Shown here piece after piece: positions 1-50,200 of a DNA stretch of 64,000 nucleotides. Position numbers and translations under genes: made by a program. The stretch covers positions 3,460 through 67,459 of the IMG/VR virus record IMGVR_UViG_3300021378_000020. One strand, 5' to 3'. The stretch comes from a virus. The notes under the pieces were generated by a model. The model did no database searches and was not told the origin of the DNA. It saw nothing but the letters and a program-made list of their open reading frames with translations. Numbering within the stretch: the stretch's first letter is position 1; each line of letters begins with the position of its first letter.

Positions 1-685
1 ACTGTCCGGTGGGATTAATAAGATATTCAGTATCATCGTCCACCCAGTCGTTCAGAAGTCTTTTGATACATGTTCTTAAAACGGTTCGTACAAGTTCTAT
101 GTCTTGGTCTGCGGTATGCTGAGCACTACAGACCACCTTAGACACTCGCACTGGTTGTCCTATATCAGAGTAGTCTACAGAGACTTGCGCCTTCGCATCA
201 GGGCCGAAAGGTAACGCAGCAGTAATTTCACGAAGTATACTATGACTGAGACTAATTGCAAGAGGCATATAGTCATCAGTTTCATTAGTCGCGTACCCAA
301 ACATAAGTCCTTGGTCACCCGCACCGAAGTCATCGGTTCCTAATGCGATATCGGGCGACTGACCGTGCAGTTCGTTATAGATCTTTAAAGTGTTCCAATT
401 AAAACCGTCTTGCTCATATCCAATGTCTTTTACGACACCTCGTACAATTTGTGCAATGACATCTTTATTGAACTTGTCGCTCTTGTACTCCCCAGCAAGG
501 GTTACCATGTTAGTCGTAACTAGGGTTTCAACTGCGGCACGATTATGGATGTTATTATCAATTAAGTAGTGAGCAACCGCATCAGAGATTGCATCTGCAA
601 CTTTATCCGGATGTCCAGCACTCACACTTTCGCTTGTAAATGTATATGCGGTGTCAGAGTAGACACCAGATGATGTAGAAGTCAT
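1..685 (-). CDS. metK: S-adenosylmethionine synthetase, 3' end runs off the window (not in the ORF track)
   Basis: Manual translation from ATG at 685 (GGTGAG RBS): YTFTSESVSAGHPDKVADAISD ... GAGDQGLMFGYATNET ... GPDAKAQVSVDY ... YLINPTG, which are the MetK signature motifs. Confidence 0.97.
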   Translation of the reverse strand, partial: MTSTSSGVYSDTAYTFTSESVSAGHPDKVADAISDAVAHYLIDNNIHNRAAVETLVTTNMVTLAGEYKSDKFNKDVIAQIVRGVVKDIGYEQDGFNWNTLKIYNELHGQSPDIALGTDDFGAGDQGLMFGYATNETDDYMPLAISLSHSILREITAALPFGPDAKAQVSVDYSDIGQPVRVSKVVCSAQHTADQDIELVRTVLRTCIKRLLNDWVDDDTEYLINPTGQ

Positions 686-29896: not shown

Positions 29897-32800
29897 TTAT
29901 ACGTCAACGTAAGAAGCAGATACCGATACTACTGCACCAGCAATTACCGATGTATAAGTCAATTCAACACTTGAACCATTGATCTGAACATCAGTATCAC
30001 CCAACGCGTTGGAACCTGTGAATAGGATACCATATTCAGTGATGTATGGGTTTGTGCCGTCATGAATAACTAGACATTCGCGAGTTTCAAATTCGCCATT
30101 GCTTTCTACAGTAACGATGTACTTGGCAGAACGATATATGGTTTTATTGAATGCAGAAACTACTGTAGCAGAAGTTCCAGCAATAACGTCATTACCCTGC
30201 TCAAATACCTTGATGTTGTCCGCAAGAGTTTCTAGACCAACAGACTTAGGATCTAGTACACCAACCGAGTTAGTAGACTGAGCGATTACAACCGCCTGTG
30301 TACCGACTGGAAGTGCAGCATTGAAGGTGATTTGTTGTGCAACAGCATCAATCGAGTAGTGAACCGATGGATCCTGAATAACACCACCAACGAATACCAT
30401 TGCGTTAACTTCTTGAGTGTAGAAGTCCAAAGCAAACGTAGACTGTGCACCGTCACCAGAGATGACCTGACGTTTTGCGTCATTGAATGCCAACGTGGAA
30501 GGGTCAACAAGTTCCATAGCAGAACCGTCAGTCTTAACACGAGCAACAAAACCGTTCTTATCTACTAGGTCTGTATCGACAACGTCTTCCAACTCAACGA
30601 ACTTCTTACCAGTTGATACTGACAGAACACCAGATGTATTGTTGTAAGATACATTACCTTCACCGTCTACGTCTGTGACCGAGATTGAAGCACGTGCACG
30701 AGCAGGAGTGAAGTATTCGTTATCACCTTCGGAAAGGTTAGTGGTTGAGAATACAGAGATATGTTGAGCAGCAAGACCGCCGTCCAATTGACCTTTGTTC
30801 ACTGCGTCAGAAGAGAGCGTACCGTTTGCAAGACCACCGATCTTGTTATCGGACATGTCCAGTACGCCAAACATTGCGTCGCCAGACTTGCTTACTTTAC
30901 CGTCGATTTGAGTCTGTAGACCCGCATCGGCAGCAGCAAACTCACCACGAATCAAACCATCTTGGGTTGCACGAGTAGTTGCTTCAGTTGTTAGGTCAGC
31001 AGCATTTGTTGCGATGTCTGTTTGGTTCTGAGTAATCAGACCAGTTAGAGTACCATCGGCAGACTGGAATGCAGAGACGATTTCAGTTAGTGAATCTAGA
31101 GCAGCAGAGTCAGTGTTCGACGTAATGAAGTCAATTTGAGTCTGTAGTGAACCTTCAACACCTTGTGCGCGTGATGACTCATCAGAAATCGCAACAGCGT
31201 TTGCAGTGATTAGTACACCGTTTGCAGCTTCAGCAGCAGTCGCACGACCAACTTCTGTTGCTAGGTTAGTTGTTAGTACACCTTCAGCAGCAGTAGCACG
31301 AGCAACTTCAGCATCCATTTGTGATTGCAAGTTTGCATCACCAGCGATACGAGCGTTGTCACCAGACTTGATTGCAGCGTCTAACTTTTTGTCTGCATCT
31401 GCTAGAGATGTAGATAGGTCAATATAGTTAGTAGTTCCACTATCTGGAGAAGCGTAAGTACCGTCAGCATTTAGACCAGCAGCAAGTTGAGTTGCAGTCA
31501 TTTCTGTTTCAAGTACAGTAGCACGAGAATCAAGAGCGTTATCAGCAACTTGACGTGAGTTTGCTTCTGTAGAAATCTTACCGTCTAGTACGTTATCTGC
31601 ATTGTCACGTAGAGTTGCTTCGTTAGCAACGATGCCGTCTGCATAAATCTTAGCAGTAGCCTCAGCATCATCTGCTTCTGATTCCGCATAAGACTGAGCA
31701 GATGCAAGAACAGCAGCGTCACGAGCAATGTAGTCCGCTTGGTCAGTTACACGATGTGCAGCTAGGTCAGAACGGATTAGTGAATCAGCGGCAGTTCGGT
31801 CAAGAATTTCTGTAGCAAGTGCGTCACTGTCTGCGTCTGCACGAAGAGAGGCAGTTGCAATGGCAGAGGTGTTAACATTAACTTCAGAGTGAAGTTCATC
31901 GATTGCACCAGTGATAGACTGAGCAGTAGTATCAAATACACCGTCACCCAACTTAGTTTCTAGAGCGTCAATGTCTGCTTCGTTAACAGTTAGACGACCA
32001 CCTTGTAGTGTCTGTTCTGTTTCAAGAGCAGTAGCACGAGTTTCTAGACCAGTAGCACGACCTTCAACATTGTCCATCTCAACTTGTAGAGTAGCAACTT
32101 TACCAGTTTCTGCATCTAGTTGAGTGTGGAGTTCGTTTACAGCTGTAGTAACATCAGTAGCAACAGTTGCAAGAGTTGAAGAACCCATCTGAGTTTGTAG
32201 AGTATCAACATGACCTTCTTCTGTAGAAACACGTGATTCTAGTGAAGTTGCACGACCTTCTACTGCGTCCATTTCAGACTGTAGAGTGTCTACATTTGCT
32301 TCTTCTGTAGTAACACGAGCAGCAAGAGCAGCAAGAGCAAGAACATCTGCGTCAATCTCACCATGCAATTCATTGATTGCAGCTGATAGGTCAGATGCTA
32401 CAGTTACTAGGGTTGCAGTACCTTGTTTAGCTTCTAGTGCATCGATGTCTGCTTCATTAGCTGTTAGACGACCGTCTTGTTCTAAGTCTTTCGCTTCAGT
32501 TGCAGTGGAACGAGATTCTAGTGAAGTTGCACGAGATTCTACGTCAGTTGCACGTACTTCTAGTGCATCGATGTCTGCTTCGTTAACAGTTAGACGACCA
32601 GAGTTTGCAGTAATGATGTTTTGAATGTCTGAGTCAGCATCTTCGAACGCAGCAACGATTTCTTGAAGTGTATCGAGAGTCTCTGGAGAAGTACCGATGA
32701 TTGCATCAACACGACCAGTTACACTGTCAACGTCTGTACGTAGACCTGCTTCAACACCAGTTGCACGAGTTACTTCAGCAGTAATCTGTGATTGGTTGTC

Positions 32801-35371
32801 TGCATGGTCAGCAGCTTGTAGAGTTTGTAGAGCAAGAATCTCACCGTCATTTGCGGTGATTTGCGCTTGGTTTGAATCAACGTCTGTACGTAGACCAGCT
32901 TCGATACCAGTTGCACGAGTCACTTCAGCACTGATTGCTAGTTCGTTAACTACTTCAGCAGCCTTAGCACGTGTAACTTCAGCAGTGATTTGTGCTTGGT
33001 TATCACTATGGTCAGATGCCTGAAGAGTTGCAAGAGCAAGAATATCAGAATCGTTTGAAGTGATTTGTGCTTGGTTTGAATCAACATCAGTACGTAGACC
33101 AGCTTCGATACCAGTTGCACGAGCGATTTCTGAAGTGATTTGAACCTGTAGGTCTGAGTCAGCATCTTGGAAATCTGTGATAGCACCATCTACACGTAGG
33201 TCTAATGCAGCTTCTGCCGCTAGAGCACGTGCTCGTTCAGTGTTAATCGCACCTTGGTTAGCTGAGATGTTTACAGTATTAGTGTTAACGTCTGTACGTA
33301 GACCAGCTTCAACCGCTTCTGCACGTTGACGTTCTGTAACAACAGCAGTAGCATTAATAGCTTCCGCAGCAGTAGCACGAGCAACTTCAGTGGTGATTTG
33401 TGACTGTAGACCAGAATCACCAGCAATACGACTAGCAATTTCAGAAGTGATTTGACCTTGTAGGTCTGAATCGCCAGAATGACGAGCAACTTCTTCTGCA
33501 CGTAGGTCGATTTCATTCTGTGCAGCAAGAGCTTCAACAGAATCCATATCACCTTCTAGTACTGTAGTACGTAGAGATAGTGCATTGTCAGCAGCCAAAC
33601 GAGTTGCTGCTTCAGCAGAAACCTGTGCGTCTGTGTATGCAGTTGCCTGTGTTTTAGCAGTTGCGATACGAGCAGTAACAGTGTTACCAACAGTACCGTC
33701 TACAGATGCGTCACCGATAAGTGCAGCGTCTTGTGCGTCAGCATGTGCCTGTGCAGCTGCCTGATGAGAATCTGCCTCTGCGTCAGTGTATGACTTAGCA
33801 GATGCAAGTGTTGCAGCGTCAGCAGCAATTCGAGCAGCTTCTTCAGCAGTAATCTGTGATTGTAGACCAGTGTCCGCAATTGCACGAGTTGATGCTTCAG
33901 TGTCGATGTTGGTTTGTAGAATGCCTTCAGCAGCTTCTGCACGTGCTTTCTCAGTAGAGATTGCAGTAGTGTTAGAAGAAACAAGAGCAGACATATCGCT
34001 ATCAGCATTTTGGAATGCAGAAACGATTTCTGTTAGTGAGTCTAGTGCAGCTGAGTCAGTATTCGAAGTGATGAAGTTGATTTGGTTCTGCAAATCAGTA
34101 TCTTGTGCAATTCGTGCAGCTTCTTCTGTGTTAATGTTACCTTGTAGAACTACTTCAGCAGCAGTAGCACGAGCTTCTTCTGCATCAAGTTCAGTCTGTA
34201 ACGCAAGGTCACCAGCAACACGTTCGAGTTCTTCAACAGTTAGTTCTGCTTCTGCCTTTGCGACTGCTTCTGCTTTTGCAGTTGCAATGCGGTCAGTAAC
34301 TGTATTGTTTGCAGTACCATCAACAGTAACGTCACCGATGAGTAGGTCATCATGCGCCTTTGCAGATACTAGAGTTGCAGCATCTCCAGAAATGATGTCA
34401 GCGCCTAAATCAGTACGAACCTGAGTATCGGCAATAGCACGTGCGTTAATTTCGTCTTGTAGGTTTTGTGCGTTTGCAGCTTCTGCACCAGTAGCACGAG
34501 CAATTTCGTCTGCAAGATCCTGAGTAAGGACACCTTCAGCAGAAGTCGCACGACCAACTTCAGAAGTAATCTGAGACTGGAGTGATATAGATGTTGCTTC
34601 TTCAGTTGTTAGACGTGCAGATAGTGCACCGTCAGCTAAAATACGTGCAGTCTCTTCAGCAGTAAGCAATGAAGTGATTGCAACTTCAGCAGCAGTAGCA
34701 CGAGCAGTCTCAACAGAAATCGCAGTTGCGTTTTCAGTTTCTTTGCTGATTGCACGAGAAACTTCGGAAGTGATTGCAGCAGAGTTAGCAATAATTGAAG
34801 CAGATAGTACGTCATCCGCGTCTTCGAACGCTTTGATTACTTCTACGAACGAATCGATTGCAGCTGAATCAGTATTGCTTAGGATGTCATCGATACGACC
34901 AGAAAGAGCTGTATCAGCAGACTGATATGCCGCTTCCATTGAATCTTCCCGAGCTTTCGCACGAGTTTCTTCAGCACTGATGTTTGATTGTAGTGTAATA
35001 TCCGCTTGTGCACGTGTTGATGCTTCAGCATCAATATTAGACTGTAGTAGTTGTTCTGCAACTGTCGCACGGCTTGTTTCTACCGCTACCGCATCCGCGA
35101 TATCTTGAGCAACTGCAGCCTGAGCACGCTCAGGTGTAAAATACTGATTGGCACCTTCTTGCAAATCATCCGTTGAGAATGAAGAGAAGAACGCGTCTGC
35201 TGTAATCTTCTTTAATGAGTCTGAACCGACATCATAGAGAAGCGTAAAACAGTCCGCTGGGTTTACCATATCTGTAAGGGTTGATTGTCCCTGTACCGCA
35301 CTTTCGTCTAGTTTGGTATTGATTACCGCTTTATCGGCTAGTGCTGGGGATTTAATCTGCCTAAATGCCAT
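29897..35371 (-). CDS. 1824-aa very long alpha coiled-coil fibre with periodic knob motifs and C-terminal beta domains
   Basis: ExxRAxxxE repeats; four TDSAALDSLTEIVSAFQxAD-type knobs; C-terminal GDGAQSTF..VFVGGVIQDP and YRSAKYIVTV..HDG..ITEYG domains typical of T4-like marine phage virion proteins. Confidence 0.75.
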   Translation of the reverse strand: MAFRQIKSPALADKAVINTKLDESAVQGQSTLTDMVNPADCFTLLYDVGSDSLKKITADAFFSSFSTDDLQEGANQYFTPERAQAAVAQDIADAVAVETSRATVAEQLLQSNIDAEASTRAQADITLQSNISAEETRAKAREDSMEAAYQSADTALSGRIDDILSNTDSAAIDSFVEVIKAFEDADDVLSASIIANSAAITSEVSRAISKETENATAISVETARATAAEVAITSLLTAEETARILADGALSARLTTEEATSISLQSQITSEVGRATSAEGVLTQDLADEIARATGAEAANAQNLQDEINARAIADTQVRTDLGADIISGDAATLVSAKAHDDLLIGDVTVDGTANNTVTDRIATAKAEAVAKAEAELTVEELERVAGDLALQTELDAEEARATAAEVVLQGNINTEEAARIAQDTDLQNQINFITSNTDSAALDSLTEIVSAFQNADSDMSALVSSNTTAISTEKARAEAAEGILQTNIDTEASTRAIADTGLQSQITAEEAARIAADAATLASAKSYTDAEADSHQAAAQAHADAQDAALIGDASVDGTVGNTVTARIATAKTQATAYTDAQVSAEAATRLAADNALSLRTTVLEGDMDSVEALAAQNEIDLRAEEVARHSGDSDLQGQITSEIASRIAGDSGLQSQITTEVARATAAEAINATAVVTERQRAEAVEAGLRTDVNTNTVNISANQGAINTERARALAAEAALDLRVDGAITDFQDADSDLQVQITSEIARATGIEAGLRTDVDSNQAQITSNDSDILALATLQASDHSDNQAQITAEVTRAKAAEVVNELAISAEVTRATGIEAGLRTDVDSNQAQITANDGEILALQTLQAADHADNQSQITAEVTRATGVEAGLRTDVDSVTGRVDAIIGTSPETLDTLQEIVAAFEDADSDIQNIITANSGRLTVNEADIDALEVRATDVESRATSLESRSTATEAKDLEQDGRLTANEADIDALEAKQGTATLVTVASDLSAAINELHGEIDADVLALAALAARVTTEEANVDTLQSEMDAVEGRATSLESRVSTEEGHVDTLQTQMGSSTLATVATDVTTAVNELHTQLDAETGKVATLQVEMDNVEGRATGLETRATALETEQTLQGGRLTVNEADIDALETKLGDGVFDTTAQSITGAIDELHSEVNVNTSAIATASLRADADSDALATEILDRTAADSLIRSDLAAHRVTDQADYIARDAAVLASAQSYAESEADDAEATAKIYADGIVANEATLRDNADNVLDGKISTEANSRQVADNALDSRATVLETEMTATQLAAGLNADGTYASPDSGTTNYIDLSTSLADADKKLDAAIKSGDNARIAGDANLQSQMDAEVARATAAEGVLTTNLATEVGRATAAEAANGVLITANAVAISDESSRAQGVEGSLQTQIDFITSNTDSAALDSLTEIVSAFQSADGTLTGLITQNQTDIATNAADLTTEATTRATQDGLIRGEFAAADAGLQTQIDGKVSKSGDAMFGVLDMSDNKIGGLANGTLSSDAVNKGQLDGGLAAQHISVFSTTNLSEGDNEYFTPARARASISVTDVDGEGNVSYNNTSGVLSVSTGKKFVELEDVVDTDLVDKNGFVARVKTDGSAMELVDPSTLAFNDAKRQVISGDGAQSTFALDFYTQEVNAMVFVGGVIQDPSVHYSIDAVAQQITFNAALPVGTQAVVIAQSTNSVGVLDPKSVGLETLADNIKVFEQGNDVIAGTSATVVSAFNKTIYRSAKYIVTVESNGEFETRECLVIHDGTNPYITEYGILFTGSNALGDTDVQINGSSVELTYTSVIAGAVVSVSASYVDV

Positions 35372-37901: not shown

Positions 37902-38650
37902 ACGATTGGAGTATCCTTATTTAAACCCGCAGAGAAGTGACGTATAATCACTGGCCCTGTTTCAGGTTTTGTGATCGCCCAATTAAGAGCGTTATAATAG
38001 TTCCACCTCAAGTCGTCATCGAAGATACCAACCTTGAGATCCTTATATTTTTCTTCTTTCTCAGTCAGCCACCAAAGGGAGAATTGATCCCACGATTTCA
38101 GGGAATCTGCATAACCTTTTGGCCACCAAGAATCGTTCATCTGTCTGAACGTTAAGTCCCACCAGTCATCCATGAACTCCCGAACAATTGGTTTGGACAT
38201 ATCATATAGACAAACAGCACCACATAATGTAAATTTAGAAACACCTTCCGGAGTATCAAAATCACGTTCCGCGTAAATATAGTCGCGGTCGTCAGTGAGG
38301 GCAGTGAATACCACGTCGTGGTCTTTCATCTCATCCCACACTTTGGTAATGTCTTCATGCTCGACTTCCATGTCAGCATCAATGTACATCGTTATATCGT
38401 ATGGTGATTTTGCCATACCATATAACTTAGCTCGATAATGGTCGTCACATAAGATAATATCATCTGCGACATCACGACCACGGTCGTCTAGGAATCTTTC
38501 TTCTGTCACTAGACAGATTTTACATTCATCTTCTGGTTCGTAGTAGTCTCTAAGAGACTCCGCAAGATTGATTGCATACAAATAAAAGTTATGCTTCTTA
38601 GAAGCGACAATTATAAACCCTTTACTCTTTTCCATCGCTCTCGGCCTCAA
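37898..38650 (-). CDS. GT-A fold nucleotide-diphospho-sugar glycosyltransferase
   Basis: AESLR..AKLYGMAKSPYDITMYIDAD (DxD), WDQ, RWN, IIRHFS; GT8/GT77-like pattern. Confidence 0.75.
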   Translation of the reverse strand: MRPRAMEKSKGFIIVASKKHNFYLYAINLAESLRDYYEPEDECKICLVTEERFLDDRGRDVADDIILCDDHYRAKLYGMAKSPYDITMYIDADMEVEHEDITKVWDEMKDHDVVFTALTDDRDYIYAERDFDTPEGVSKFTLCGAVCLYDMSKPIVREFMDDWWDLTFRQMNDSWWPKGYADSLKSWDQFSLWWLTEKEEKYKDLKVGIFDDDLRWNYYNALNWAITKPETGPVIIRHFSAGLNKDTPIV

Positions 38651-39083
38651 GTTGATCTTGTAGAATCATGATTGACCACATATCTACTTCAATCTTTGAT
38701 TTTGCTCGACGCAGTTTTGCCTTTAACTTTCGGTTTTTAGAGTTTTTGATTTCTTCTACTTCAAATGCTTCAATCTTGTAGTTGAATAACTTTTCAAGTT
38801 TACGTGCTTTCTGGTGTTCATTTTCACGTAGTTTATCTTCTTCAGCTTGTGCCTCCTTACGAACAACTCTATCTGTAGTTTCTTTATCGATAGAATCTTC
38901 GCCTAAGGCATCAATCACTTCATTAAACAATTCGTTCTCACCACCATCCTTATCATGACGGTGTAAAAACATTTGTTGACGTGTAACACGACCAACATCA
39001 TCTTCAAGTTCTAGGATACAGTTCAGTTCTTTCTTTTCTTCTGTTTCCCAGAAGGCATTATCCATCCATTGCTTACGACTCAT
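38622..39083 (-). CDS. hypothetical protein, first gene of the cassette after the hairpin-fibre gene
   Basis: 153 aa, GGAG RBS, charged helical C-terminus; overlaps the GT ORF. Confidence 0.75.
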   Translation of the reverse strand: MSRKQWMDNAFWETEEKKELNCILELEDDVGRVTRQQMFLHRHDKDGGENELFNEVIDALGEDSIDKETTDRVVRKEAQAEEDKLRENEHQKARKLEKLFNYKIEAFEVEEIKNSKNRKLKAKLRRAKSKIEVDMWSIMILQDQLEAESDGKE

Positions 39084-39138
39084 TAAATATCTCCAGAGAG
39101 TTCAATTCAAATTATAATGTATATAGTGTTAAGATAAA

Positions 39139-39160
39139 GCGGGTCAAGTGAATGACCCGC
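39139..39160 (-). terminator. hairpin / terminator after the 1320-aa gene
   Basis: GCGGGUCA-UUCACU-UGACCCGC followed by UUUAUCUU. Confidence 0.7.
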
Positions 39161-39170
39161 GTTATATCTT

Positions 39171-39199
39171 ATTATACCACAGTAAGGGCGATTAGGCAA
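39171..39199 (-). promoter_or_regulatory. possible sigma70 promoter with extended -10
   Basis: TTGCCT-17 nt-TATAAT with TG at -15/-14. Confidence 0.4.
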
Positions 39200-42100
39200 C
39201 CCTTACGTATAAAGTATAAGTTTCTGGTGTATCTACTAGGTCACCACTAATGGTTTCACCAGCATAGTTACCAGCAAATGCCCTAGAGAAGTTTCCGGTG
39301 AAATCGGTATTGTAGTTACCACCAAATGTACGAGAGTAGTTACCTACGAAATCACCAGCGTAAGCAGACACACGGTCACGAGAATAAGTACCAGTGTATG
39401 TAGAGTTGCGTATTCTTGCGTAAGCTGATACACGAGCTCTAGAGTAATTACCTGAGAAGTCTCTTGAATAAGCACCAGCGTACTCACCAACAAATCCACG
39501 TGAGTAGTTACCTACGAAGTCGCCTACGAAGTCACGGGTATATGTTCCAGCGAATTCTCCCGCGAATGTACGCGAGTAGTTGCCTACAAAGTCGCCAGCA
39601 AAGTTAGTTACACGGTCACGTGAATATGTGGATACACGATTGTTTACGTATGAAGACACACGAGTTTGAACATATGCAGAGTAACGAGCACGGGTAGACT
39701 CACGAGTATATACACTAGTAAAGTCACCAGTGTATGTCCCACCAAATCCACGAACATAATTACCAACGTAGTCACCAGCATATCCGCGAGCATAGTTGCC
39801 TACGAAGTTACCAGCAAAGTCCGTAATACGGTCTCTTGTGAAAACACCAGAGTAATCTGTAATGCGGGTACGAGCATAGGCTGAAACACGGTTGCGAACA
39901 GAATCGCGAGTTGAATTGCGAGTAAAGTCACCAACATAGTTAGTGATACGAGTACGAGCATATGCAGAGTACCGGACGCGAGTAGAAACTATGGTTGAAG
40001 TTCTTGTGTAGTTGCCGACAAAGTTGCCTGCAAAGTCTGTTACACGGTCACGAGTAAAGTCACCAACATAGTTAGTGATACGAGTACGAGCATATGCAGA
40101 GTAACGAGTTCTTGTAGAAGTACGAGTTGAAGTTCTTGTGTAGTTGCCGACAAAGTCACCAGCGTATGAACCAACGCGTGTATAGTTACCAGTATTAGTA
40201 AAGGTCTGAACACGATTACGAGTGTACGCCGTCGCATAGTTACCAGTATAAAGAACTTGACGTGTGTAGTAACCAGTATTGGTTGAAGTTCTAGTTGAAG
40301 TTCTTGCGTAGTTACCCTCATAAGAGCCAGTGCGAGTACGTGCGTAGTTACCAACATAGTACAGTGTTGCAGCACGAGCGCGAGAGTAGTCCCCGACATA
40401 TGAGAATGCACGGTTACGAGCATAGTTACCAGTATAGGATGCCGCACGAGTACGTGAGTAGTCACCCACGAAGTTCCCGGCATAGTTTGTTACACGAGTA
40501 CGACCATAGTTACCAGTATATGTTGCGGCACGGGTTCGACCGTAGTTACCAGTATATGTTACATTTCTATTATAGGAGGCTGTTCGAGAATACGTAGTGG
40601 ATCGACCGTAGTTGCCTACGAAGTCACCAGTATAGGAAGTCCCTGCACCTATTCTAGTTCTGGTGTAGTATTGGTAGTTTGCATTACCCGACGCTGCAAC
40701 ACTGTGGTAAGAGAAATATGAAGCAGATGCTTGAGCTGGCCCCTTAGTATATCTTGTGCTACCGTATGGGTTGCCTACATCAACATAGTCGAATGGGGCC
40801 GACGCAGTATTAGAATAGAATTGGGAAAATCGAACAGCACCGGCCCAGCTGATGGTAAGAGTTACACCACCGGTGTAACCATAGTCATACTTCCATGAAG
40901 CGTAGCTACCGTTAGTGCCGGTGTATTGAAAGTCTTGACCATAACCAGCATAATTACCAACAAAGGAAGCAGTACCAGAACTGACACGAGTCGATGTTCT
41001 GCTGTAATTTACTGTACGAGCATAACCCGTACTGCGAGTATAGGCTACAGCTGCGACTCGGTTACGGGAGTAATCGCCAACATAGGATGCAGCTCGGTTA
41101 CGTGAGTAGTCACACACGAAGTTCCCGGCATAGTTTGTTACACGAGTACGACCATAGTTGCCTACATATGAGGCAGCGCGAGCTCGCGTATAGGTACCAC
41201 CGTAAGTACCAGTACGAGTACGACCATAGTTACCAGTATATGTAACGCCTTGTGCGCGAGTACGAGAGTAGTTACCTACGTAACTGAATGCACGAGCACG
41301 TGCGTAGTTACCTACAAAGTCACCAGCATAGTACAAAACACGAGTATATGCCACAGTGCGAGCATAGTTTGCAGAGTAGTTACGAGCATAGTTGCCTGCA
41401 AAGTCACCAACGTAGTACAATGTACGAGTATAGTTTAAGGTGCGAGTGGAAGTTCGGGTTGAGGTTCTTGCATAATCACCGACGAAATCTCCGGCATAGT
41501 TGCCTACATATCCACGTGCGTAGTTACCTACAAAGTCACCAGTAAAAGTAGTTGCATAGTTACCAACAAAGTTACCAGCATAGTTGGTTATACGGGTTCT
41601 TGCATACTCACCAACATAGTTACCAGTATAATCTCCGGCAAATCCGCGTGAGTAGTTACCTACGAAGTCACCAGTAAAGGTAGTTGCATAGTTACCAACA
41701 AAGTCGCCCGCGTAATTACCTGTGTAAGTTCTTGTATAGTTACCAGCGAAGTCACCAGTAAACGCTCGAGAATAGTTTCCGATGAAGTTACCAGCAAAGT
41801 TTGTTACACGGTCACGTGCATATGCAGAGTAACGAGTGCGAGTTGATGTGCGGGCATAGGCTGAGTAACGAGTTCTAGCAGAAGCCCGAGTAGAAACACG
41901 AGCGTAGTTACCTACGAAGTTGCCCGCGAATCCACGTGCGTAGTTACCCACGAAAGATCTTGCATAGTTACCCACGAAAGTTCTTGCATAGTTACCAGCG
42001 AAGTTACCGGCAAATTCTGTAATGTTATTACGCGTATAAGCAGATATACGTTCACGACTATAAACACCAGTGTATGACGCGGTAAATCCGGTTAGTCTAG

Positions 42101-43154
42101 TACGTGAGTAAGTAGAGTTACGAGTACGCGAATATGTTCCGGAAAAAGAAGAAGGTCGAGTTCTTGTGTACTCACCAGCGAAGTTACGAGAGTAATTACC
42201 AGCGAAGTCGCGAGAATAAACTCCAGCATAATTGCCAACAAATGTACGAGAGAAGTCTGTAACACGATTAGTGGTATATGAAGAAACTCGATCACGAGTG
42301 TATGCTGATACTCTAGTACGTGCATACGCAGAAGCGCGAGTACGAGTATAGTCTACGGTAACAATAGAAGGTTGAGTGTTTGAGGCAGAACCACGTGCGG
42401 CCCAAGTACCAACGGAGGTTGGTGCGCCCTGTGCAGACGAACGTAACTGATAAGAACCAATTTCGCCTGCTGTTGCTCTGAGGGATTTTGCACGTTGACC
42501 AAGAGTATATTTGATCTCCGCGTCTGACATTTCTTTCAGACCATTGAATGATGAAGTTCCATCATAGTCGGTCGCTACCGGACGAACAGTTGTAACACCA
42601 GCTGGTGGTGTAGACAGAGCAGTTCTTTTCCATATATGATAAGTTGTTGTTGTACCGTCACCAAGAGTATTAGAAAAAACATTATCAATATGTTTTGTCC
42701 AATCACTGCCCGGAGAGGTGGTAGAAAGTTCGAATGCACCTTGAAGACCTAATGTCTCCATATTTTTTAGTGCACGATTTGTTAAGTTGTCCAAGTCTGC
42801 GTCTACCATTTCGTAGAAGCCTGGATTTGGTTCAACTTCGTAATAACCTACAGGACGGGCGAAATTCGGATCAGTTTCACTTGCAGAACCACCAACCTGT
42901 TTCAAGGTAGTGGTCACTGTAGTGCCTGTGATGTTTGACAACGGGTGAGTACCCGTTGGTTCATTGTAGTACGTATCTACAAAAGAACCAATGTTTACAC
43001 CATCAGTTAAACTGAGGTCTCCGATATCACCAGCAGAGGCCTCTGCTAGTGCTTCACCCACCTTTACAGCGAGATACATCTCTTCTGAAGGTGTAATTTC
43101 CTGTAGGTCACCATTAGCATTCTTAATTTTTAGTGGTATACTAGATGCTGACAC
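39192..43154 (-). CDS. 1320-aa virion fibre-like protein with two complementary tetrapeptide-repeat arms (giant antiparallel beta-hairpin) and a central tip domain
   Basis: aa ~269-738 and ~830-1300 are built of YxRx/RxSx/FxGx/STRT units; non-repetitive aa ~739-829; late promoter upstream. Confidence 0.8.
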   Translation of the reverse strand: MSASSIPLKIKNANGDLQEITPSEEMYLAVKVGEALAEASAGDIGDLSLTDGVNIGSFVDTYYNEPTGTHPLSNITGTTVTTTLKQVGGSASETDPNFARPVGYYEVEPNPGFYEMVDADLDNLTNRALKNMETLGLQGAFELSTTSPGSDWTKHIDNVFSNTLGDGTTTTYHIWKRTALSTPPAGVTTVRPVATDYDGTSSFNGLKEMSDAEIKYTLGQRAKSLRATAGEIGSYQLRSSAQGAPTSVGTWAARGSASNTQPSIVTVDYTRTRASAYARTRVSAYTRDRVSSYTTNRVTDFSRTFVGNYAGVYSRDFAGNYSRNFAGEYTRTRPSSFSGTYSRTRNSTYSRTRLTGFTASYTGVYSRERISAYTRNNITEFAGNFAGNYARTFVGNYARSFVGNYARGFAGNFVGNYARVSTRASARTRYSAYARTSTRTRYSAYARDRVTNFAGNFIGNYSRAFTGDFAGNYTRTYTGNYAGDFVGNYATTFTGDFVGNYSRGFAGDYTGNYVGEYARTRITNYAGNFVGNYATTFTGDFVGNYARGYVGNYAGDFVGDYARTSTRTSTRTLNYTRTLYYVGDFAGNYARNYSANYARTVAYTRVLYYAGDFVGNYARARAFSYVGNYSRTRAQGVTYTGNYGRTRTGTYGGTYTRARAASYVGNYGRTRVTNYAGNFVCDYSRNRAASYVGDYSRNRVAAVAYTRSTGYARTVNYSRTSTRVSSGTASFVGNYAGYGQDFQYTGTNGSYASWKYDYGYTGGVTLTISWAGAVRFSQFYSNTASAPFDYVDVGNPYGSTRYTKGPAQASASYFSYHSVAASGNANYQYYTRTRIGAGTSYTGDFVGNYGRSTTYSRTASYNRNVTYTGNYGRTRAATYTGNYGRTRVTNYAGNFVGDYSRTRAASYTGNYARNRAFSYVGDYSRARAATLYYVGNYARTRTGSYEGNYARTSTRTSTNTGYYTRQVLYTGNYATAYTRNRVQTFTNTGNYTRVGSYAGDFVGNYTRTSTRTSTRTRYSAYARTRITNYVGDFTRDRVTDFAGNFVGNYTRTSTIVSTRVRYSAYARTRITNYVGDFTRNSTRDSVRNRVSAYARTRITDYSGVFTRDRITDFAGNFVGNYARGYAGDYVGNYVRGFGGTYTGDFTSVYTRESTRARYSAYVQTRVSSYVNNRVSTYSRDRVTNFAGDFVGNYSRTFAGEFAGTYTRDFVGDFVGNYSRGFVGEYAGAYSRDFSGNYSRARVSAYARIRNSTYTGTYSRDRVSAYAGDFVGNYSRTFGGNYNTDFTGNFSRAFAGNYAGETISGDLVDTPETYTLYVRVA
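39919..40103. repeat. 53-nt identical repeat with 132-nt period in the C-terminal arm
   Basis: CGAGTAAAGTCACCAACATAGTTAGTGATACGAGTACGAGCATATGCAGAGTA at 39919 and 40051. Confidence 0.9.
40451..41159. repeat. 61-nt direct repeat shared by the two arms (40451-40511 / 41099-41159)
   Basis: Single mismatch (40466 C / 41114 A; Gly vs Cys codon). Confidence 0.9.
41521..41704. repeat. ~52-nt repeat with 132-nt period in the N-terminal arm
   Basis: TAGTTACCTAC[A/G]AAGTCACCAGTAAA[A/G]GTAGTTGCATAGTTACCAACAAAGT at 41521 and 41653. Confidence 0.85.
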
Positions 43155-43204
43155 GATATCGTCTCTCTTTAGCTAAAGTTAAATTTAAGGGTTATAACAG
43201 TATT

Positions 43205-43212
43205 TATTTATA
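43205..43212 (-). promoter_or_regulatory. T4-type late promoter upstream of the 1320-aa gene
   Basis: TATAAATA. Confidence 0.8.
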
Positions 43213-43280
43213 ATAAAAAAAATGTGCATAAACTGAGTTCACACACATTTTTCAAAATTAATTTACAGATTATAAAATAT

Positions 43281-43760
43281 TTAATAGTCTAGTATAGGCC
43301 AGATAACATCTTCTAGAGAAGAAACTTGTGTCATGTCTATGGTTTCCGTGATATCACGCAATTCCTGTCGATAAGATATCACCGACTGTCGTTCTTCTTC
43401 TGTTAGAGGAGCATCTGTGACAAGCATCCAGTCAGTCTCTACCAGTTTCTGGGTGCGAACGAATCTTATCTCGCCTAGAATGTGTTCTACGTCCCACTCC
43501 CAGTCACCGTCTACCCATGTGGCATAAACATTTGGTTTTGGTGGAACTTCAATGAACTGTTGGTCTTCTTCGCTCCAGACGCGAGTATTCATGAACTCCA
43601 TCTCGGAGAGACCCTCTAGATCCCAAATTCTATGAACCAGTCTATCACCTTCTATTGAGTGACCATCTTCTGGATAAAGACCGTTGTCCATATCGGTTCT
43701 TACGATTACGCCTGCTTCTGTGTGTATGGCGACTTTAGGATGCATCTTATATTTCTCCAA
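43281..43760 (-). CDS. tail fibre assembly chaperone-like protein
   Basis: IRFVRTQKLVETDW..DAPL..YRQELRDIT..VIWP motif. Confidence 0.8.
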   Translation of the reverse strand: MEKYKMHPKVAIHTEAGVIVRTDMDNGLYPEDGHSIEGDRLVHRIWDLEGLSEMEFMNTRVWSEEDQQFIEVPPKPNVYATWVDGDWEWDVEHILGEIRFVRTQKLVETDWMLVTDAPLTEEERQSVISYRQELRDITETIDMTQVSSLEDVIWPILDY

Positions 43761-43786
43761 TTAATAAATTTTGTAATATTTCACTA

Positions 43787-44605
43787 TTATTGTGGGTCAT
43801 ACGTACCCAAGGTTTTTCTTCCCGCAAATGTTGGTACCAACGCCTGAGGATATTCCCAATTCGGGGAACTGTAAGGATTGTTTATTTCAGAAAATTGAAA
43901 GACCCCACCATCGGAACCTCCCCTAGCGTATATGAGTGAGGAAGTCCCACCAGAATAAATCGAGCCATAAATGGTCTCATTATTTACGTTGACAGTCGTC
44001 CACAAATAACCATATGAACGAGTACCTCCAGTCCAAGAACTTTCTTCCAACGCAAACGCGGAGTAGTAATCGTCTCCAGTGGAACCAGACCTACCAGCAC
44101 CATTCCAACCTAACGCCAGTAGAGAACCATGCCCGTACAATCCAGCATAGGCCTGAGTAGGATCTAGTTGAACTTCACCTTCGGTTGACGTGAACATTCT
44201 ACTATCAAAGGTTATCTCTCCACCCAGATAAGCTCTACACTGCAAACCGTGAGTACCGTAACTGGTGGTAGTTGCAGAATCTCGTAACACTACGTAGTTA
44301 ACTCCAGTGATAGAAGACTGATTCGTGTTAATGCTTGAACCACCCACAACCCTTTTCCGAAACTCCCACGTTATATTATCCCCAGAACGAGTTTTAACCG
44401 CAGTTACCAAAACATTTGCAGAACCGCTGGAAGGTCTGGTCAGATTAATCATGAGCAAGTCGCTCACTTTAGTTGTTATAGTTGAACCAAACGCAAGCGT
44501 TCCTTTTTGATGTTGAAAGGTTCCTCGACCAACATCTCTGCTATCAAAAATAACTTTTTCTGTACCGTATTTTGTTCCGGTAATCTGTAGTCCGTAATCT
44601 GACAT
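43787..44605 (-). CDS. tail-tip / receptor-binding protein
   Basis: Two YGL..(V/I)xFDS modules (MSDYGLQI..VIFDSR; THGLQC..ITFDSR) followed by a Gly/Tyr/Ser-rich domain. Confidence 0.6.
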   Translation of the reverse strand: MSDYGLQITGTKYGTEKVIFDSRDVGRGTFQHQKGTLAFGSTITTKVSDLLMINLTRPSSGSANVLVTAVKTRSGDNITWEFRKRVVGGSSINTNQSSITGVNYVVLRDSATTTSYGTHGLQCRAYLGGEITFDSRMFTSTEGEVQLDPTQAYAGLYGHGSLLALGWNGAGRSGSTGDDYYSAFALEESSWTGGTRSYGYLWTTVNVNNETIYGSIYSGGTSSLIYARGGSDGGVFQFSEINNPYSSPNWEYPQALVPTFAGRKTLGTYDPQ

Positions 44606-47063: not shown

Positions 47064-47290
47064 TTCTTATCCTCTAATAAACGAAAAAGCAATTCTTTTA
47101 TTTGTGTCATATCCTCTTTCAATCCCTTGACTTCTATGGATAAAGAATCGATATTTTCCTGTTGTTCTTGATGTATCTTACTTCGTTTCCTAGCATTTTC
47201 GATTGCGGTTTTATTGGTATTTAGGATAACACCCGTTCGCATATCCCTTACCAAATCGTTGTGTCCCTCAACTCTCTGGTGACTATTCAT
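47060..47290 (-). CDS. conserved small T4-like phage protein
   Basis: VEGHNDLVRD..GVILN..IKELL; usual neighbour of DUF4815-type genes. Confidence 0.75.
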   Translation of the reverse strand: MNSHQRVEGHNDLVRDMRTGVILNTNKTAIENARKRSKIHQEQQENIDSLSIEVKGLKEDMTQIKELLFRLLEDKK

Positions 47291-50200
47291 TATGTTACCA
47301 ACGCAATAACACGTAGGTCTCTAGTTACCGGAGACTTGGATGAATTGCTTGAGTGCATCACAATCTTTACTTGGAATGCGGTGAACTGGTCGGTATTAAC
47401 AGTATATTCATAATCACGGAAGGTCGATGGATTGTCATCCGAAGGCAGTTCCTTGTCTATAGTAGCCTGTACCCATTCTGTAATAAAGTTACCCTCATCA
47501 TCAGTTGCAACCAAGGCGTCTTCATCCGCTGTGACTCTTACATAAACCTCGAAGTCAGCAGGAGACGGACGGTTTGCTGCAAAGATTATCTTTAGGCCCA
47601 CAGAGGATTCGTTAATTACTATTGGTACAGTTATATGTTGCGCTGCATCAGTACTATCAATAACATTCTCTAGGGCAAGAACAGATACCCTTTGGAGGTC
47701 GATGACCGGAGAAACCTTCGTGTCTTCTGTAGACAAGTTTAGGTTGAACTTCATTGTTTCTGAACCACCCGCATTATCCGAAGATGCGACAACACTAGGT
47801 AATGTATTAGTGTTATAGTCGTTTAAAAACACGGTCTTAGATGTTGTTATTCCATAACCAAACTGATTGGTAGACCTAGAATCTCCATAGGAAGAAACCG
47901 AAGGACTAAACAGTTCAGTCGTAATAGTAGTTTTCTTCGGTGTGACGGTTTGTATTTGTGGAACAAACTCATCATAATACACTTGTTGAGATGCAGTTAC
48001 ATCATTACCACCACCCACCGCAGAAGATGTTGCAGGAGTTGCAACGGTAATGTCATATCCATTCCATGTTGGATTAGACACCAAGAAGGTGCCTTCGAAA
48101 TCTGTTGAAGGTACTCCACCAATTGCATTAGGCACATCAGATATAGATACTGTATCGTTATAACTAAATCCATGACCTTCGTGATAAACACGAACAGATG
48201 ATGAACCTATAGTTGTTTCTAAGGGGTCTAGCCCCAATGTAACTTTAGGTAACGATGCATTGTCAAGTACTAATGTACCCGAAGTATCAAAATCAGCACG
48301 GTCTAATTCGAACATTAAGTCTTTAGTCTGGTCTGGTGTCCATGTGAAACCATTTTGAGATAGGAACAAAGAACCTAGAGTAGGCTGTCTTGTTACTCTA
48401 TCTTCGCGTGAACCAATTATGTTCTCGTAGGTTTCAGCAATATAAGAGTTATATCCCACTGACTCAGCAAGTAAGATTATCGCATATTCTTCCCCACTTG
48501 TCAAGTAGATTGGTTCATCAAATTCAACGATTGTTGCTCGTCCGGTTAAGTAGGTTATACCATTTTCTTCCACATCAATAACCGGTGTTACTGTAATATC
48601 AGCAGGGTCAACAAACTTGACTGCGCCAGGTACGATACGTGTAGTAGGTATACCGTTCTCTACTGAACGAATCTGAACCTGTAGAGGAATGTTGTCGTCC
48701 TTGGTCTCCATGAAGATTCGCGCTTTAGTTATGAACAGACCATTAGGGTTCTCTATTTGGTCAACGAAGAATGTCTGAGCGAGAGGGTCTTGACGACCAG
48801 CACGGACATTAAGCACTCGTGTTGTACGGATAGTTCTCTGCACACTTTCGACGGTACCCGTTGAGGTGTAGTTCGCACGAGTTGAAGCCGTAGCTTCATT
48901 GTCGCTATTAACGCTCACATCAAGAAGTTTTAATTCATGAGTTCCAGTTCTAAAGTTAATTGTTGGTGTATTGGGTAAGAAGAAACTACCGACCAATTCA
49001 CCATTAGCATCGGTTTGTAATGTGGTAGGGCCACCTAGGTCTGATGGATACTCAGTTGCATTCGCATACTGACTACCGAACTCTGTAGGGTCGTCCGAGA
49101 ATATAGATGAAGATGATTCTTGTCTTACCCATGAACTCACCTCTTTATTACCAAAGTATGCGAACATCTTAGTGTTGGGACGTAGACCCTTTGCAGTAAA
49201 GTGGATTCTACGAGAACGCATGAATGGAACAATCTCGACATCTGCAACCTGTTCACCAATAAAGTCCTGAATGCTACGAGTGGTTTCTCTGAAGGAAACG
49301 TCTCTTGGTATTGTAGTGAACAATCCATTATTTGTCAAGGTATTATTAGAATTTCTTCCGGTACGCAATGCTTGACGCTGCCATAGGTCTGCATCGAAAT
49401 TTTCGAATCGACGTACAGTGGTCTGCATGATAGACGGTAGAGTTCTAGTCTCAACCCACTCATCCGATGATGGAGAAAGCTCCATATGTCCGGTTTGAGT
49501 AAGCACCGCAAATGGATTCACGTTCATTGTATCTGTCGCAAGCAACTGTGATACTAGAGTAACGTCTGTATAAGGTAGAGTTACTAGGTCGCCATGTTTC
49601 TCAACAGCATCAACGTTGTCCGTACTATAAGAAAGACGGACTGAGTTCTCGCGGAAGGATGGTTTCAACAATCCCCGTGGATCGATAGATGCGCGGTAGT
49701 TTAAGTTGTCGATATCTGAGAAGATGAAAGAACTAAAGTTGTCTGCAATGAAACCAGCCTTGGTACGTGCATTACCGTTGATATCTACTACAGTCAATGC
49801 ATTGGTGTTCGACTCTAACAAACTCAGAGTGGTCAATTCGAATAAGTCTGTAACACGTTGTTCCAGTTTACCGATGTCTTTCATCGTGAAACGTTTGTTT
49901 GGAATAAACGTACTAGTAAGGTCAGCGGTACCGAATGTGTATGGGTTCAAACGGAACTTATACAACGCCATTGAACCTGTAGGAATCTCTGGTTCACGTG
50001 GGATTACATTGGACTCGCCTTGAATCAATTGTAGTTCACCGAATCCGATGTTACCACGACTGTCTACCGCATTAGCAACAAGGATATCGATACGCGGTAG
50101 ATAGTATTGGATAGTGTTGATTGTAATTGCAGAAGCATTCTGTGGTAGTTCGGCTCTAACGTCGAACTCACCGGTGTAAGTGAATGCTCGGTCTGGACGG

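Follow-up and report, generated by a model that had tools for sequence, protein, structure and literature searches.

The long tail fibre protein gp37 of bacteriophage T4 ends in a needle (domains D10/D11) whose chain runs out to a receptor-binding tip and returns: D10 is built from residues 811-881 and 1010-1026 (PMC6957217). The needle is a trimeric beta-structured rod that depends on chaperones, in which a glycine of one strand packs against a phenylalanine of another subunit (G921 and F970) and His-x-His boxes coordinate iron (PMC6957217). Outside phages, the N- and C-terminal halves of SMC and Rad50 proteins pair antiparallel within one chain, with an apex domain inserted in the middle and the two termini together at the base; arm length is constrained, so both halves must change together. 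Those arms are alpha-helical heptad coiled coils in chromosome-maintenance ATPases. In RNA stems, distant sites co-vary because their products pair, and the pairing can be inferred from this covariation without a structure. Very regular short peptide repeats extending over hundreds of residues are found in beta-solenoids such as the pentapeptide and hexapeptide repeat families.

Here, we describe a fibre gene with two long repeat arms that differ from relatives by indels of matching size at mirrored positions. The gene lies in a window of 64,000 nucleotides (positions 3,460 to 67,459 of IMG/VR virus record IMGVR_UViG_3300021378_000020). The initial annotation had noted period-132 duplications at mirror positions in both arms of this gene and inferred that the fibre was lengthened by compensatory duplications in a hairpin. 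The observation was confirmed. The compensatory interpretation was supported, with the qualifications that the duplications are not recent and that the hairpin fold itself is an inference.

Architecture and genomic context of the fibre gene

The features of the gene are listed in Table 1. A periodicity mask was used to delimit the arms. The 4-residue (12-nt) repeat carries an aromatic residue or Arg at every fourth position and Gly two residues later.

Table 1. Features of the fibre gene and of one neighbour (positions in the 64,000-nt window)
Position	Strand	Residues	Feature	Basis
39192..43154	-	1320 aa plus stop	Fibre gene	ORF list and translation; within a tail-fibre and baseplate module
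42384..43154	-	1-257	Conserved N-terminal domain; presumed to attach to the virion (inferred)	349 library proteins match at E<=0.001; 99.2% nt identical in L083; about 250-270 aa and preceding the first arm in most homologues
40932..42383	-	258-741	N-arm (484 aa) of 4-residue repeats	Periodicity mask; sequence printed in groups of four
40674..40931	-	742-827	Non-repeat tip domain (86 aa); presumed distal receptor-binding part (inferred)	Periodicity mask; similar tip only in L005 (79%) and, weakly, L059 (35%), although the arms of other relatives are about 70% identical
39231..40673	-	828-1308	C-arm (481 aa), same 4-residue repeat	Periodicity mask; sequence printed in groups of four
39195..39230	-	1309-1320	Conserved C-terminal tail (ends ...TYTLYVRVA)	Nearly invariant columns T1312-R1318 in a family alignment
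41464..41760	-	464-569	N-arm array of period 132 nt (44 aa), 2.2 copies	TRF; protein-level scan
39919..40156	-	986-1096	C-arm array of period 132 nt (44 aa), 1.8 copies	TRF; exact runs; protein-level scan
41571..41702	-	485-528	N-arm 44-aa unit absent from L005	Global alignment with long-gap penalties; landmark count 100 against 56 aa
39975..40106	-	1017-1060	C-arm 44-aa unit absent from L005	Global alignments; landmark count 100 against 56 aa
41027..41055	-		N-arm stretch in which L083 lacks 18 nt (6 + 12)	Nucleotide alignment; protein alignment at aa 707-712
40588..40605	-		C-arm 18 nt that L083 lacks; mirror partner of the previous feature	Nucleotide and protein alignments
41059..41220	-	645-698	N-arm copy of a 162-nt direct repeat shared between the arms, near the tip	Repeat search, 77% identity; 45-nt exact run at spacing 648
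40411..40572	-	861-914	C-arm copy of the same 162-nt repeat, at about the same distance from the tip	Repeat search; exact run; dot plot
43281..43760	-		Upstream neighbour with a tail-fibre assembly chaperone domain; context only, link to this fibre not tested	PF16778, E 1.4e-11; PHROG 4912

The protein matched no family in Pfam (E<=0.01) or PHROGs (E<=0.001), and a phmmer search against all PDB chains gave no hits at E<=1. A search of a protein atlas found only unnamed viral clusters, with scores at or below 0.87 and no structure. The only named homologue, in Phage C48C1, is annotated as a hypothetical protein. By context, however, the gene belongs to a tail-fibre module of a myovirus: its neighbours match a tail-fibre assembly chaperone, Phage_Tail_Tip, a baseplate wedge subunit, tail fibre proteins, tail sheath, and terminase, and gene order is the same in C48C1. 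The closest record is classed in Kyanoviridae. The family is sizeable; in addition to the library matches to the N-terminal domain, 233 IMG/VR stretches were confirmed.

Compared with the gp37 needle, the protein shows no detectable sequence similarity and lacks the His-x-His iron sites, as only four isolated His residues occur in the whole translation. The arms are also far longer (about 480 aa here, over 1000 aa in C48C1) than the whole gp37 needle, which is about 130 aa by our arithmetic on the published residue ranges (882-1009). The strict 4-residue repeat and the paired tandem arrays are not mentioned in the passages on gp37 consulted (PMC6957217), and a literature search, judged from listings and the beginnings of abstracts, showed no paper on this family or on mirrored indels in a fibre. 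The SMC and Rad50 arms are an analogy only, because the present repeat is rich in aromatic residues and glycine, is presumably beta-structured, and belongs to a virion fibre. A pentapeptide or hexapeptide beta-solenoid was rejected: the period is 4 rather than 5 or 6, no Pfam repeat family matches, and a solenoid gives no reason for two arms to match in length and in indel pattern.

Period-132 arrays at mirrored positions

In the C-arm, 39919-39971 is identical over 53 nt to 40051-40103, and a further 31-nt exact run lies at 39994-40024 (+132). In the N-arm, 41521-41572 and 41653-41704 are identical at 50 of 52 positions, with a 25-nt exact run at 41548-41572. The 53-nt run is the longest in-phase exact repeat in the gene, and the two TRF arrays are the only ones in 38000-44000 with a period above 24. 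They differ in internal identity (89% matches in the C-arm, 76% in the N-arm).

The outer ends of the arms sum to 1566 aa, equivalent to a nucleotide sum of 81,616, and the tip boundaries give 81,607; the initial annotation had given about 81,610. The arrays lie 258.5 (N-arm) and 267 aa (C-arm) from the respective arm bases and within about 9-12 aa of mirror positions. That the periods should mirror each other had been set in advance as a condition, and they do so in the TRF and protein-level scans. The accompanying window-based dot plot of N-arm against C-arm was too noisy to show module order, and a scan of mirrored residue classes in this single sequence gave no sharp register. No inverted DNA repeats were found, so any hairpin is in the protein and not in the DNA. 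As the unit sequences also differ between the arms, direct DNA-level coupling is unlikely.

Indels in relatives

The comparison with relatives bears on an expectation stated at the outset, namely that common intact alleles with the 132-nt unit in only one arm would speak against coupling. Relative L005 lacks exactly one 44-aa unit in both arms, and its full indel pattern against this gene is a palindrome: -124, +44, +28, -80 | -80, +28, +44, -124. This pattern was obtained with long-gap penalties, which gave a higher score than the default penalties; the latter scattered the N-arm 44-aa gap. No complete relative at 60% identity or more lacks a whole 44-aa unit in only one arm of the duplication window. 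The nearest cases among 17 informative relatives are L104 (30 against 0 aa) and L107 (6 against 0 aa).

The closest allele (L083) is 97.6% identical at the nucleotide level, and its only length changes are the 18 nt lost in each arm at mirrored places. Relatives L100 and L116 give perfect palindromes. The cumulative length-difference curves of the two arms coincide: for L010 they read 0, 0, 60, 204, 204, 204, 204, 232, 232, 232 in both arms, L063 reaches 492 against 491, and L024 432 against 431. Of 52 N-arm indels, 18 have a partner of the same size at mirror sum S=1567, whereas shifting S gives 0-4 of 52 and a direct (non-mirrored) mapping 1-5 of 52. In this analysis, the -100/+88 pair in the N-arm of L007 looks like a register slip of the aligner. 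More generally, gap placement inside repeats is ambiguous, and the relatives are not phylogenetically independent.

Among 21 relatives at 60% identity or more, the proximal window is equal within 4 aa in 18 of 20 informative cases (for sizes of 112 to 492 aa) and the duplication window in 10 of 17. Matching is poor near the tip, with the distal window equal in only 5 of 20. L086 (arms of 557 and 645 aa) and L104 (551 and 601 aa) look unbalanced. Length contrasts based on the mask alone were weak (r=0.49, with 15 of 41 disjoint pairs agreeing within 16 aa), because the inner arm boundaries depend on the tip.

The 132-nt duplications are old rather than private to this genome. Two diverged relatives, L006 and L024, carry the same module layout, and orthologous copies are as similar as paralogous ones. 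Landmark counts (100/100, 56/56, 128/128, and 96/96) were made by eye on the sequences.

Possibly, the matched pairs come mainly from recombination, with exchanges between co-infecting relatives carrying the whole interior of the gene (distal N-arm, tip, distal C-arm) as one block. The gene is indeed mosaic: the N-domain is 87% nt identical to L005 but 65% to L024, while some C-arm units are 89% identical to both L006 and L024. The tip is swapped between otherwise similar genes, and many relatives share the same -112/-112 proximal pair. We nevertheless consider this unlikely as the main explanation. It does not explain how equal-sized pairs arise in the first place, nor pairs flanked on both sides by homologous sequence, such as the nested 124, 44, 28, and 80 pairs of L005 or the isolated 18-nt pair of L083, and it still needs a constraint that arms must match.

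Array pairs across the family

To examine whether the pairing holds across the family, we analyzed 115 two-arm cluster representatives. Of 24 same-period N/C array pairs, 10 lie within 5 aa of the mirror position, 14 within 10 aa, and 17 within 20 aa. The null means are 0.8, 1.6, and 3.0, and none of 2000 simulations reached the observed counts. Only 3 of 70 different-period pairs lie within 10 aa. Eleven representatives have a detected array only in the N-arm and six only in the C-arm. Many family members do not fit a simple hairpin: one clade has arms of about 270 and 153 aa, whereas others have three arms (135, 134, and 135 aa) or many domains.

Inferred fold-back architecture

The analysis itself establishes that the two arms have equal length and that their tandem arrays and their indels against relatives match in size and lie in mirrored order when counted from the outer ends of the arms. 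From this we infer, as the likely explanation, that the gene encodes a long fibre of a T4-like marine myovirus in which the N-arm and C-arm lie side by side, antiparallel and in register from the base, most simply as an intramolecular hairpin. The variable, globular tip would sit at the distal turn and the C-terminal decapeptide would return to the N-domain, like a greatly lengthened gp37 needle. The mirrored covariation supports antiparallel pairing, but without a structural model it does not settle whether the segments before and after the tip lie together. AF2 gave a mean pLDDT of 31.8 for aa 258-1320 (36-sequence alignment) and 30.7 for the tip with short flanks (aa 700-870, three sequences); no model was good enough for a fold search. 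A complex prediction with three copies of aa 640-930 gave no answer (score 0.00, controls not run), which we treat as no evidence either way, and trimer formation was not otherwise assessed. The conserved N-domain and C-tail around a replaceable tip, and the precedent of gp37, are consistent with a chain that returns.

Alternatively, the arms may pair antiparallel between chains, the N-arm of one extended chain lying against the C-arm of another in a rod with N-domains at both ends and the tip domains in the middle. This arrangement predicts the same mirrored covariation and base-anchored register, and nothing computed here separates intra-chain from inter-chain pairing. We regard it as unlikely, since phage fibres are polar, with a conserved attachment end and a variable distal end, and the hypervariable central domain (from 12 to 610 aa) suits a distal tip.

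As a mechanism, we infer that slippage or unequal recombination in a tandem array changes one arm by a unit, which puts everything distal out of register. Selection would then favour a change of the same size in the partner array, which has the same period and is equally mutable. In this view, fibre length is adjusted by paired modules while the tip is exchanged as a cassette. The 132-nt arrays would be one such paired module, inherited from an ancestor shared with L006 and L024. In contrast to RNA stems, the unit of compensation is an indel of whole peptide modules (6 to 492 aa) in a protein and not a base substitution.

A further-reaching reading, which we consider slightly more likely than not, is that of a previously undescribed kind of beta-structured virion fibre. 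Each chain would make an out-and-back ladder of 4-residue aromatic/glycine repeats, from about 100 to more than 1000 residues per arm, with its length tuned in evolution by paired arrays of the same period. Indel palindromes would then be a protein counterpart of RNA-stem covariation, giving the register of a fibre that no current predictor can fold. The exchangeable tip would be the host-recognition cassette, and the fibre-length series (arms of about 150 to 1000 aa) an adaptive variable in marine phage-host encounters. If the fold-back reading is right, a large family of marine myovirus fibres has an architecture that can be read directly from sequence covariation. The palindromes would give the pairing register, the position of the distal tip, and the modular units of length, making host-range cassettes and fibre length predictable from metagenomes and offering a clean natural example of compensatory indels in a protein.

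Chance placement and assembly

For this gene alone, mirror placement of the two arrays is only moderately unlikely: by our estimate, the second array falls within about 10 aa of the mirror position in an arm of about 480 aa with a chance of a few percent. Metagenome assemblies can also miscount perfect repeats, and short-read Logan contigs of runs X1, X3, X4, and X5 break at the 53-nt C-arm repeat, so they cannot count its copies. Independent slippage events or an assembly artefact are nonetheless very unlikely, being contradicted by the family-wide statistics, the palindromic indels, the window comparison among relatives, and the shifted-axis and direct-mapping controls. Assembly errors would not produce equal changes in both arms.

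In the reads, no joint skipping 132 nt was listed. The listed joints inside the gene have short sides (20-49 nt) and may come from repeats or from other phages; they were not used. Runs X4 and X5 have no cover at 40561-41013 (tip region), which may mean a different tip, although absence of cover is not evidence. Single contigs of these two runs span the N-arm array, and the same array structure appears in the independent metagenome contig L083 as well as in L006 and L024.

Organization of the fibre gene

The finding lies inside a single minus-strand ORF of 1320 aa. When the translation was printed in groups of four, two long segments formed an almost unbroken 4-residue repeat, in which an aromatic residue or Arg sits at every fourth position and Gly usually sits two residues later. 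These two arms follow an N-terminal domain, are separated by a non-repeat domain (the tip) and are followed by a 12-aa tail. The window is part of a 67-kb virus record, and the neighbouring genes match a tail-fibre assembly chaperone, a tail-tip fibre, a baseplate wedge subunit, tail fibre proteins, tail sheath and terminase. Three more giant ORFs lie in the same structural module; the first (2300 aa) matches tail-fibre PHROGs, whereas the other two (1824 and 1658 aa) match only families of unknown function. The fibre itself matched no Pfam family, no PHROG and no PDB chain. Its only named relative is a 3348-aa hypothetical protein of Phage C48C1 (Kyanoviridae; locus L004:1012-11055), found in the same gene order. 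ORFs of 83-147 aa in other frames or on the other strand inside the repeat gene are most likely by-products of its repetitive composition.

Positions of the fibre gene, its repeats and associated elements (nt, window coordinates; aa, residues of the 1320-aa protein)
Feature	nt	Strand	aa	Remark
Fibre ORF	39192-43154	-	1-1320	
N-terminal domain			1-257	
N-arm			258-741	484 aa
Non-repeat (tip) domain	40674-40931		742-827	86 aa
C-arm			828-1308	481 aa
C-terminal motif	39195-39230			
C-arm 53-nt exact repeat	39919-39971 and 40051-40103			further 31-nt exact run
N-arm repeat	41521-41572 and 41653-41704			50 of 52 nt identical; 25-nt exact run
C-arm TRF array	39919-40156			period 132 nt, 89% matches
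N-arm TRF array	41464-41760			period 132 nt, 76% matches
N-arm unit absent from L005			485-528	44 aa
C-arm unit absent from L005			1017-1060	44 aa
N-arm window with 18 nt missing in L083	41027-41055			
C-arm 18 nt missing in L083	40588-40605			
Proximal hot spot, N-arm	about 42015-42165		330-380	
Proximal hot spot, C-arm	about 39435-39600		1185-1240	
Weak C-arm array			1184-1236	period 24 aa
162-nt direct repeat	40411-40572 and 41059-41220			77% identity; 45-nt exact run
Substitution cluster, runs X4 and X5	41274-41412			
No contig cover, runs X4 and X5	40561-41013			tip region
Giant ORF 1	22733-29635			2300 aa
Giant ORF 2	29897-35371			1824 aa
Giant ORF 3	47290-52266			1658 aa
Internal ORF	40040-40483	-		
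Internal ORF	40295-40597	+		
Internal ORF	40994-41245	+		
Internal ORF	41288-41545	+		

Mirrored placement of the tandem arrays

The initial annotation had reported repeats with a period of 132 nt in both arms, related by a mirror axis with paired coordinates summing to about 81,610, and this observation is correct. TRF found exactly two arrays with a period above 24 nt in 38000-44000, one in each arm and both of period 132. The arm ends gave a mirror sum of 1566 aa, i.e. 81,616 in nucleotides, and the tip boundaries gave 81,607. The two arrays lie 258.5 (N-arm) and 267 (C-arm) aa from their arm bases. No inverted DNA repeats were found. A 162-nt direct repeat is shared between the two arms at about equal distance from the tip; the same peptide module would face itself antiparallel.

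To examine whether the mirrored placement is meaningful, relatives were collected from four sources: (i) 120 proteins from a word-indexed search; (ii) 150 listed matches (124 of them new) from a search of cluster representatives with the N-terminal domain; (iii) 78 IMG/VR loci; and (iv) 60 metagenome loci. Of 323 sequences from the first three sources, 223 were classified as complete by the conserved C-terminal motif, and these fell into 178 clusters. In total, 115 cluster representatives had a simple two-arm layout. Tandem arrays were detected in both arms in 25 of them, in the N-arm only in 11, in the C-arm only in 6, and in neither arm in 73. Among the 24 N/C array pairs with the same period, counted from the outer ends of the arms, 10 lay within 5 aa of mirror positions, 14 within 10 aa and 17 within 20 aa. 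Random placement of the C-arm array gave means of 0.8, 1.6 and 3.0, respectively, and never reached the observed counts in 2000 trials. In contrast, only 3 of 70 different-period pairs fell within 10 aa.

Matched periods included 8, 10, 12, 14, 24, 28, 36, 38 and 44 aa, while the unit sequences differed between the arms. In long members (L numbers denote relatives), several arrays appeared in mirrored order, e.g. 44, 28, 10 before and 10, 28 after the tip in L012; 12, 14, 10 before and 10, 14, .., 12 after the tip in L009; and 12, 28 before and 28, 12 after the tip in L019. Arrays with periods of 10 and 14 aa, which are not multiples of the 4-aa unit, flanked the tip symmetrically in L009, L011, L012 and L024 (10 facing 10, 14 facing 14); the family members P0096 and P0112 have 22 facing 26 and 38 facing 38. 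Phase-breaking units also seem to need a matching partner.

Matched indels between relatives

The N-type and C-type 44-aa units of this gene have recognizable homologues in relatives, the N-type always in the N-arm and the C-type always in the C-arm. Read by eye between conserved landmarks, the variable module measured (N/C) 100/100 aa in this gene, 100/100 in L006, 100/100 in L024, 56/56 in L005, 128/128 in L010 and 96/96 in L059. With long-gap penalties, the alignment to L005 (82% identity) showed eight indels: -124, +44, +28 and -80 in the N-arm, and -80, +28, +44 and -124 in the C-arm. A comparison with related genomes for alleles lacking one or both duplications had been proposed in advance as a check, and L005 is such a relative: it lacks one 132-nt unit in both arms.

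The cumulative length-difference curves of the two arms, measured from the base, coincided over most of their length for L006, L010, L014, L024 and L063. Of 52 N-arm indels of 8 aa or more, 18 had a C-arm partner of the same sign and size (±4 aa) within 30 aa of the mirror position. Shifting the axis by 60-300 aa gave 0-4 partners, and a direct mapping gave 1-5. L008 was left out of this count, as it belongs to the same cluster as L006. Several misses are cases in which the aligner split or merged neighbouring gaps although the totals agree (-492/-492, -292/-292 and -200/-200). Further perfect palindromes were found in L100 (-12, -100, +14, +26 in the N-arm and +26, +14, -100, -12 in the C-arm), L116, L096 and L093. 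A second, proximal pair of hot spots carries matched insertions of 112, 124, 144, 204, 252, 432 and 492 aa in relatives, often as arrays of period 44 aa with 6-8 copies (L024, L063, L012), whereas this gene has only a weak array there.

The closest allele, L083, is 97.6% identical at the nucleotide level and keeps both 132-nt arrays, including the 53-nt exact repeat. It differs in length only by 18 nt missing in each arm, and its arms measure 478 and 475 aa. The tip is its least conserved part (91.9% nt identity, against 96.7-99.2% elsewhere). The tip domain is also exchanged between otherwise similar genes: only L005 (79%) and L059 (35%) have a similar tip, while the arms of L006, L008 and others are about 70% identical. 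Contigs from two other studies (runs X4 and X5, examined over 38900-43400) carry arms at 95-99% identity with a cluster of substitutions. They gave no cover over the tip region, which hints at alleles with another tip but is not evidence on its own.

Exceptions to the mirrored pattern

We next compared 21 deduplicated complete relatives with 60% identity or more. In the proximal window (aa 300-440 against 1127-1267), the length changes of the two arms were equal within 4 aa in 18 of 20 informative cases, for sizes of 112 to 492 aa. The two exceptions were L007, probably due to an alignment slip, and L099, which has extra domains on the C side. In the duplication window (440-578 against 989-1127), they were equal in 10 of 17. 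Intact alleles with the 132-nt unit in only one arm, if common, had been named beforehand as evidence against coupling; here, no relative lacked a whole 44-aa unit in only one arm, but two relatives changed in one arm only (L104, 30/0 aa; L107, 6/0 aa). The remaining five were unequal, four of them partly matched and the fifth being L007 (88/-15), the same probable alignment slip. In the distal window next to the tip, only 5 of 20 were equal. By the periodicity mask, L086 (557/645 aa) and L104 (551/601 aa) have unequal arms. The rule is therefore strict from the base outward and loosens towards the tip.

Across the wider family, 32 of 94 one-gap proteins have arms within 20 aa of each other, and disjoint-pair contrasts of mask-based arm lengths correlated only moderately (r=0.49, with 15 of 41 pairs within 16 aa). 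Not every member is a simple hairpin. Among P0084, P0099, P0073, P0046 and relatives, some have three arms of nearly equal length (135/134/135 aa) and one clade has an N-arm of about 270 aa and a C-arm of about 153 aa; others have many domains. Possibly, the long N-arm contains a sub-hairpin of its own, although this was not tested. The homologue of Phage C48C1 and L099 are giant proteins of 3348 and 3616 aa. In these, an N-arm of about 1050 aa is followed by a small tip, and the return side is broken by several globular domains of about 100-225 aa separated by arms of about 95-100 aa, as if knobs decorate the returning strand.

Age of the duplications

L006 and L024 share the module layout of this gene, although their N-terminal domains are only 80% and 65% identical to it at the nucleotide level. 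In all three genes, the first two C-arm copies are 83-92% nt identical to each other, and orthologous copies are 81-89% identical. The N-arm copies are 70-80% identical within a gene and 72-74% between genes. Without rooted segment trees, these data are compatible with two losses of a unit in L005 as well as with two gains in the others. Given the shared layout and these identities, the duplications predate these lineages.

Inferred antiparallel pairing of the arms

The initial annotation had inferred that compensatory duplications in both arms lengthened a hairpin-like fibre, and the comparison with relatives supports this interpretation and generalizes it. What the analysis demonstrates is the agreement in size, the mirrored order and the base-anchored register, which are what antiparallel pairing of the two arms predicts; the pairing itself is our inference, and the physical hairpin is probable but unproven. 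All three attempts at structure prediction failed, and no register could be read from the single sequence. No single DNA event can change two sites 1.6 kb apart by the same amount. As the paired arrays share no sequence, selection on register is the most economical coupling, and partner arrays of the same period make exact compensation easy. Block recombination probably spreads the pairs but does not create them.

An intramolecular hairpin fits the conserved N-terminal domain and C-terminal tail, which would lie together at the base, and the hypervariable central domain, which would sit at the distal turn. Inter-chain antiparallel pairing is, however, not excluded. The fold-back of the T4 gp37 needle is a precedent (PMC6957217), and the arms of SMC and Rad50 offer a further comparison. 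Fold-back phage fibres are already known, and what sets the present fibre apart is its unusual evolutionary signature, which is open to experimental testing. Full-text literature searches, in which only listings and the beginnings of abstracts were examined and supplements were not consulted, showed no description of this family or of mirrored indels in a fibre. The aromatic/glycine alternation on one face of a strand suggests interdigitated packing, although this is inference only. The C-terminal motif (E/Q)TYTLY(V/Q)R(V/T)A is nearly invariant across the complete homologues although the arms vary greatly, and it may dock at the base.
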